Positions 1,438-2,520 of a stretch of DNA of 4,715 nt are shown piece by piece. The number at the start of each line of letters is the position of its first letter. Position 1 is the first letter of the stretch. The notes under the pieces were generated by a model. That model saw only the letters and a list, made by a program, of their open reading frames with translations. It ran no database searches and was not told the DNA's origin. Source of the DNA: a virus (taxonomy: Duplodnaviria > Heunggongvirae > Uroviricota > Caudoviricetes); the IMG/VR virus record IMGVR_UViG_2778261574_000003; one strand, given 5' to 3'. A program made the translations under genes and the position numbers.

Positions 1438-2520
1438 ATGAAAAAATTAACAGTGGCAATTTCTGCTGTAGCTGCATCAGTACTGATGGCGATGTCTGCT
1501 CAGGCAGCTGAAATTTATAATAAAGACAGTAACAAGCTGGATCTGTACGGGAAAGTTAATGCCAAGCACTACTTCTCCTCTAATGATGCAGATGATGGTG
1601 ATACTACTTATGCCCGTCTTGGCTTCAAAGGTGAAACCCAAATCAACGATCAACTGACTGGTTTCGGTCAGTGGGAATATGAATTCAAAGGCAACCGCGC
1701 TGAATCTCAAGGCTCCTCCAAAGACAAAACCCGTCTTGCATTTGCAGGCCTGAAATTCGGGGACTACGGCTCCATCGATTACGGCCGTAACTACGGTGTA
1801 GCATACGACATCGGTGCATGGACCGACGTTCTGCCAGAATTCGGTGGCGATACCTGGACCCAAACAGATGTATTCATGACTGGTCGCACCACAGGTGTTG
1901 CAACTTATCGTAACAACGACTTCTTTGGTCTGGTTGATGGCCTGAACTTTGCAGCTCAGTATCAGGGCAAAAATGACCGAAATGAAGTAACTGAAGCTAA
2001 TGGCGATGGTTTCGGTTTCTCAACTACTTATGAGTATGAAGGATTCGGCGTGGGTGCAACCTATGCTAAATCTGATCGCACTAATAATCAGGTTATCTAC
2101 GGTAACAACGGTCTGAATGCTTCTGGTCAAAATGCTGAAGTATGGGCAGCTGGTCTGAAATATGATGCGAACAACATCTATCTGGCCACCACCTATTCTG
2201 AAACCCAGAACATGACTGTTTTTGGTAATAACCATATTGCCAACAAAGCACAAAACTTCGAAGCTGTTGCACAATATCAGTTCGACTTCGGCCTGCGTCC
2301 ATCCGTTGCTTACCTGCATTCTAAAGGAAAAGACTTGGGTGTTTGGGGTGATCAGGACCTGGTTGAATATGTTGATGTAGGTGCAACCTATTACTTCAAC
2401 AAAAATATGTCCACTTTTGTTGACTACAAAATCAACCTGATTGATAAGAGCGATTTCACGAAAGCATCTGGCGTTGCTACCGATGATATCGTTGCTGTAG
2501 GTATGGTTTACCAGTTCTAA
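1438..2520 (+). CDS. nmpC: General diffusion porin of the OmpC/OmpF/PhoE family (NmpC / Lc-like prophage porin), 360 aa precursor
   Basis: Signal peptide [23 protein letters not shown] with cleavage before AEIYNKD. Conserved porin blocks: [112 protein letters not shown], and C-terminal VYQF. Opposite orientation to the surrounding phage genes. Confidence 0.95.

Follow-up and report, generated by a model that had tools for sequence, protein, structure and literature searches.

The question raised by this locus is whether a porin gene that lies between the antiterminator gene Q and the lysis genes of a lambdoid phage segment, in the opposite orientation, is an intact cargo gene that is expressed in the host cell. 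We looked at a stretch of 4,715 nucleotides from a virus of the Caudoviricetes (IMG/VR record IMGVR_UViG_2778261574_000003), here called the window, and compared the porin gene, its flanks and its neighbors with those of known phages, prophages and chromosomal porins. Based on our analysis, the most probable answer is that the Lc/NmpC cassette between Q and the holin gene is a separate, opposite-strand unit which encodes an intact canonical porin and is expressed as in its homologues; we give this reading a probability of about 0.85.

The window covers the nin-Q-lysis segment of a lambdoid prophage or phage that resembles DLP12 and PA-2. It holds a partial Rz (<137), the lysozyme gene rrrD of the SAR endolysin type (137..634; Pfam Phage_lysozyme and the annotation of relatives), a class II holin gene of the essD/S21 type (634..849; Pfam Phage_holin_2_1 and the annotation of relatives), the porin gene, the late-gene antiterminator Q of the quuD type (2709..3092; Pfam Phage_antitermQ with 178 bits, quuD in relatives), ylcG (3178-3318), rusA (3315-3677), ninX between rusA and ninE, ninE itself (4229-4405) and the 3' part of a Dam-type methylase gene (4402 onward). 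All recognisable genes except the porin are on the minus strand and in lambdoid order, which agrees with an earlier note on this DNA that had placed the porin between Q and the lysis genes and opposite to the late genes. The whole window matches DLP12-like prophage regions of E. coli chromosomes with 97-99% identity, and in E. coli strain NT1F25 a complete lambdoid prophage surrounds the matching region. Most of these 97-99% identical prophages match positions 63-4653 only; the outer 62 nt at each end (1-62 and 4654-4715), which lie inside Rz and the Dam-methylase gene, diverge, and this suggests mosaic recombination junctions typical of lambdoid phages. In the interval between rusA and ninX (3678-3892), a 64-amino acid ORF on the minus strand (3698-3892) shows no family match. 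In a close relative an N-terminally truncated DUF1364 pseudogene is annotated in part of this interval, and in phage ev099 a hypothetical protein; the ORF is probably a nin-region remnant.

The six-frame ORF list places the porin reading frame at 1438..2520 on the plus strand, with an ATG start and 360 amino acids. The protein matches the Pfam family Porin_1 (PF00267) with 507 bits against a cut-off of 23.7, with residues 29-360 aligned on positions 1-337 of the 337 in the model, and with such a score chance is no issue for its identity as a porin. It also passes the cut-off of the NCBIfam 'porin OmpC' subfamily (515 bits, cut-off 484), and it does not reach the NCBIfam equivalog cut-offs for PhoE and OmpF. 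The best matches among solved structures are OmpK37, OmpC variants, OmpK36 and PhoE, with E-values of about 1e-135 to 1e-133 over residues 24-360. The signal peptide of 23 codons (1438..1506, plus strand) has the same sequence as the sig_peptide feature of lc in J02580. The predicted cleavage, taken from the 23-residue signal peptide of that record, falls between AQA and AEIYNK; the Ala-X-Ala motif is present and the N-terminus that follows the cleavage site is the conserved AEIYNK. The protein ends in GMVYQF, that is, in a terminal Phe. In general porins a C-terminal aromatic residue (Phe) is needed for outer membrane assembly.

Alignment with OmpF and OmpC of MG1655 and with an OmpD representative places the PEFGG of the constriction loop L3 at residues 133-137. 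In the same alignment the pore residues are present, both the acidic ones (D130 and E134) and the basic ones (K39, R60, R99 and R158), which we take to be the equivalents of D113, E117, K16, R42, R82 and R132 in OmpF. An AF2 model created from 27 relatives shows 16 strands, with a pLDDT of 64.7 that gives it moderate confidence only. Column entropy over the same 27 relatives is high, together with indels, in L1, L2, L4, L5, L6, L7 and L8; the strands, most periplasmic turns and the constriction loop L3 show low values. This alternating pattern is exactly that expected for a porin with variable external loops. The alignments to Lc and to Salmonella OmpD show no frameshift, internal stop or truncation in the porin; the frame is intact and a pseudogene reading was rejected. 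Positions 1438-2520 are a full-length, uninterrupted gene of the OmpC/OmpF family of general-diffusion porins, of the Lc/NmpC type, and judging by its sequence the gene is probably functional. The earlier note had described a complete 360-amino acid OmpC-family porin with a signal peptide and a C-terminal Phe, each of which was borne out, and had named alignment to Lc, NmpC and OmpD as the way to find a frameshift or truncation, of which there is none.

The porin of the temperate coliphages ev099 and ev243 (Radostvirus; LR597635 and LR597639) is 100% identical to the window porin at the protein level. The cassette as a whole (895-2720) has a nucleotide identity of 99.3% to ev099 and 97.3% to ev243, with the same flanking genes, and apart from a few substitutions in the flanks there is essentially no difference. 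Lc of phage PA-2 (gene lc, GenBank J02580; Blasband, Marcotte and Schnaitman, 1986) has 92% amino acid identity to the window porin, and its signal peptide and first 98 residues are identical. For the cassette 895-2720 the PA-2 record gives 100% cover with 91% nucleotide identity. Codon 99 of lc in the 1986 record is His (KTHLAF), while in the window (1732-1734) it is Arg (KTRLAF); a conserved pore-lining Arg at this position is common to the window, K-12, OmpF, OmpC and OmpD. The His may be either a real peculiarity of Lc or an old sequencing error.

NmpC of E. coli K-12, encoded in the cryptic prophage DLP12 (qsr'), has 90% amino acid identity to the window porin up to the IS5 junction. The order of the DLP12 locus, rusA-ylcG-quuD / nmpC / essD-rrrD, gives the same architecture as in the window. 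The gene has the same position and orientation in PA-2, where lc also lies between Q and the lysis genes, and the slot is the one that had been attributed to lc and nmpC from the sequence. K-12 nmpC is split by IS5B 58 nt before its stop, at a duplicated CTAA target, whereas the window copy is uninterrupted; the alignment of the two proteins diverges only at DFTK, the IS5B insertion point. The absence of an IS5 interruption had already been proposed, and no IS5 is present in the window porin. The CTAA target, which was also used in phage 434B, reads CGAA at window positions 2459-2462. This change is synonymous, and it leaves the window allele without that particular IS5 target.

An intact reading frame can still be silent, and the DNA upstream of the gene has to be considered. 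The intergenic 5' regulatory region of the porin (850..1437, plus strand) is AT-rich: the composition profile gives 27-34% GC over about 1000-1500, against 45-55% in the phage genes. An AT-rich region upstream of the gene had been expected at 895..1437; its composition and its intergenic nature hold, and its start is moved to 850 because the annotated holin of relatives starts at ATG 849 and not at TTG 894. The proximal 137 nt upstream of the porin are 97% identical to both PA-2 and the DLP12 nmpC of K-12. Over 1181-1300 the identity to PA-2 and K-12 is only 84%, and for this reason the regulation could differ from that in K-12 and PA-2. The distal CRP-binding site annotated in PA-2 (misc_binding 1067-1087 in its record) is found at 1014..1034 on the plus strand (CTGTGTGACGAAGTAACCACT), and the proximal one (misc_binding 1363-1383) at 1309..1329 on the minus strand (ATAGAGATCTACTTCACAAAT); each is identical in PA-2, K-12 and the window, and both putative CRP sites of PA-2 are kept. 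A short GC hairpin on the minus strand, followed by TTTTTCCATTTTTT, can be seen by eye at 983-1010 (AAAAACCAGCTCGACGGCGGGTTT). Its stem pairs perfectly in K-12 (CCCGC/GCGGG), and the window and PA-2 each have a single mismatch in it; the hairpin may serve as an additional minus-strand terminator ahead of the holin gene. Two short ORFs, at 839-1012 (plus) and 1094-1228 (minus), are annotated as hypothetical proteins in ev099; they match no family and probably represent false gene calls within regulatory DNA.

The main rival explanation takes the porin for intact cargo that is in effect silent and contributes nothing under most conditions, its AT-rich upstream DNA being shut off, for example by xenogeneic silencing of the H-NS type. 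The low GC content of 27-34% fits such silencing, and a scan of 850-1437 with the sigma-70 consensus found no promoter-like site. Prilipov et al. (1998) describe nmpC in their title as 'quiescent' in E. coli B(E), which, as far as a title goes, indicates that even an intact copy may go unexpressed in the laboratory, and it was suggested in the discussion of another study that nmpC may be useless or harmful to the cell (PMC11677980). Against this stands the homologous K-12 promoter. The K-12 PnmpC region -199..-1 corresponds to window positions 1239-1437; its deletion removes the nmpC-driven transcription, the transcription start site was mapped by 5' RACE, and the promoter also drives the IS5 transposase (PMC11677980). 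In the uropathogenic strain CFT073 both nmpC copies are strongly up at 37 C, in mRNA and in protein, and NmpC is abundant in strain AW1.7 (PMC12890032). The nmpC mRNA is also a reported target of RybB (PMC3333887). Thousands of genomes keep the reading frame and the pore residues intact, and this speaks for purifying selection and against a silent gene. Weighing these observations, we consider silent cargo unlikely, and we keep to the reading of an expressed porin unit.

This unit also has its own end. An intrinsic terminator lies at 2658..2681 on the plus strand and consists of GGGGCGTTTCAACGCCCC followed by ATTTTT; the hairpin (2658-2675) has a 7-bp stem with six GC pairs and precedes the T-run. 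It is the only canonical plus-strand terminator downstream of the gene, and it is kept in PA-2, K-12 and ev099. The earlier note had the porin followed by its own terminator; the terminator does exist, and it lies 138 nt past the porin stop and not directly behind it. Immediately 3' of the stop, the hairpin at 2536-2569 shows no run of T residues on the plus strand and is followed by CTTTT on the minus strand.

Between the stop codon and the terminator the transcript would carry a highly structured 3' UTR of 161 nt (2521..2681, plus strand), with hairpins at 2536-2569, 2570-2591, 2595-2618 and 2620-2641 in addition to the terminator, and with a fold energy of -61.5 kcal/mol (z = -8.9). This 3' UTR is about 95% identical to that of K-12 and PA-2, the terminator included, and is near-invariant among the window, PA-2, K-12 and ev099. 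The IpeX small RNA was reportedly described by Castillo-Keller, Vuong and Misra in 2006. In the literature IpeX is a 167-nt RNA of DLP12 and PA-2, which is made from the phage porin promoter within the porin transcript and then processed, and which represses OmpC and OmpF (PMC12197685; PMC5069750; PMC8065619; PMC7177473). The IpeX of DLP12 comes from the K-12 nmpC-quuD spacer. We infer that 2521-2681 is the IpeX-equivalent region, because its length fits and it is about 95% identical to that spacer; its putative ends follow from length alone (161 nt, compared with 167 nt). Rfam, which has no family for IpeX, returned no hit for any part of the window at E <= 1, and the RefSeq feature table of MG1655 has no ipeX entry at the nmpC locus. 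When the 3' UTR was paired in RNAduplex with the leaders of ompC, ompF and the porin gene itself, the z-scores were -0.8, -0.9 and +1.2, no better than mononucleotide shuffles; the method yields unrealistically long duplexes and is uninformative here.

The spacer between the porin and Q (2521-2708, 188 nt) must hold a Q-dependent late promoter and its leader on the minus strand as well. If the late promoter is in this spacer, the late transcript has to cross the IpeX region and the entire porin gene in the antisense direction in order to reach the holin gene. By eye, a -10-like TAATAT (2644-2639) is found on the minus strand of the spacer, followed by a second -10-like element, TATAGT (2623-2618), which is a possible sigma-dependent pause element. 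On the same strand a bulged hairpin (2569-2536) is followed by CTTTT and is a possible tR'. The context does not match the pR' of phage 82, the published GCC at +15 to +17 (PMC5001585) being missing here, and the late promoter elements are a tentative lead only. The richly annotated record of phage 434B has no pR' marked in the corresponding spacer.

These features raise a second alternative, in which the selected function of the locus is mainly its RNA and regulatory content, that is, the IpeX-type 3' UTR and the minus-strand Q-dependent late promoter and leader, with the porin being secondary. Identity to PA-2 and K-12 reaches 95% in the spacer and 86% in the neighboring 3' end of the coding sequence, the spacer is strongly structured on both strands (z of -8.9 and -9.5), and K-12 retains it despite the disruption of its porin, all of which point in this direction. 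Against it, a spacer without the porin is never seen among phage records: the porin is present in 36 of the 36 records that have the 188-nt spacer. P7-type and other phages show the reverse, a porin without the spacer, which argues that the porin is selected on its own, and in most copies the porin ORF is full-length with conserved pore residues. We regard this alternative as quite improbable, and an expressed porin with a linked 3' RNA as the better description of the cassette.

The segment at 1971..2260 (plus strand), which encodes the surface loops L4, L5 and L6 (residues 177-190, 214-231 and 263-265), has a nucleotide identity of only 73% to PA-2 and K-12; for the 5' half of the coding sequence the figure is 94-97%. 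Lc has 365 amino acids and the window porin 360, with L4, L5 and L6 replaced or shortened, and the L4-L6 loops of NmpC differ from the window porin just as those of Lc do. The differences from Lc/NmpC are found in three blocks, at about residues 182-187, 215-231 and 263-267, which fall between predicted strands, where entropy and indels peak among the 27 relatives. The window porin therefore looks like a mosaic loop-variant allele, which differs from Lc and NmpC almost only in L4-L6, and not like a decaying gene. Such clustering in L4-L6 is what diversifying selection and recombination would be expected to produce in a surface antigen or receptor. More speculatively, L4-L6 might act as a recombinant 'serotype' that shifts recognition by phages, colicins and antibodies, and the late antisense transcript might serve as an off-switch of the porin and IpeX on induction; we hold this combined proposal as a tentative and rather doubtful one.

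Whether the porin is interchangeable cargo can be judged from related phages with similar lysis genes. Phage 21 has a holin and endolysin that are 92% identical to those of the window, and upstream of them it carries only pR', its terminator and two tRNAs, without a porin. In Lambda_ev087, Q is 88% and the lysis genes are 92% identical to the window, with other cargo in the slot. In the Q-to-holin slot of ev087 (1047-3773) a reverse-oriented lipocalin gene (Blc) lies together with a YbgA-like gene and two hypothetical ORFs. Parts of the Q and lysis genes are also found in Stx phages. The interval between Q and S is thus a cargo slot, and the porin cassette an interchangeable cargo unit with its own terminator. 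The label 'moron', which the gene had been given beforehand, is apt because relatives that share the lysis genes have different cargo, or none, at this place.

OmpD is a chromosomal major porin of Salmonella. The S. enterica OmpD, a name that we take from database protein names and that phage annotators often give to the phage gene as well, has 80-82% identity to the window porin, with the same length class, pore residues and L3; unlike OmpD, the porin gene of the window belongs to a prophage as cargo and has flanks of its own. E. coli OmpC and OmpF have 64% and 62% identity to it. That the gene is a core chromosomal porin, an orthologue of ompC or ompD that merely adjoins phage remnants, may be suggested by the RefSeq automatic annotation as 'porin OmpC' and by the 82% identity to Salmonella OmpD, but this reading was rejected and has a negligible probability, being refuted by the lambdoid-order phage genes on both sides, by the same cassette in 36 sequenced lambdoid phage genomes and in PA-2, and by the identity of only 64% to E. 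coli OmpC.

The porin cassette is an ordinary and already known feature. It is found in 2,501 of 5,426 complete E. coli genomes, counting places that cover at least 80% of the porin gene, and accounts of prophage porin biology in PA-2 and DLP12 go back to the 1980s. Matches to the cassette 895-2720 were found in 36 phage records, the porin is encoded in 42, and the nearest protein cluster at 90% identity has 2,741 members, at 98% identity to the window porin. An identical protein is already deposited for ev099 and ev243, and the window adds just one more intact copy and a loop-variant allele to a group with close relatives in nearly half of the complete E. coli genomes.

If the cassette behaves like its homologues, a lysogen would transcribe it from its own promoter, independently of the repressed late operon of the phage, and this promoter would be modulated by CRP and catabolites, by pH and by temperature, as was published for the homologues. 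By analogy, the exported porin would form trimeric diffusion pores that either accompany OmpC and OmpF or replace them, and the 3' part of its transcript would be processed to IpeX, lowering the synthesis of OmpC and OmpF. The net result would be a swap of the major surface porins, with altered permeability and with receptors for phages and colicins being removed or altered. The earlier note had proposed that this copy could be expressed and could alter permeability or receptor display, a proposal for which the published work on homologues provides the basis. PA-2 adsorbs to OmpC. If expressed, the porin together with the linked small RNA can re-model the outer membrane of the lysogen, and the permeability to antibiotics and nutrients, the display of phage and colicin receptors and the surface antigenicity would all change; in practice this concerns phage therapy and porin-related resistance in E. 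coli.
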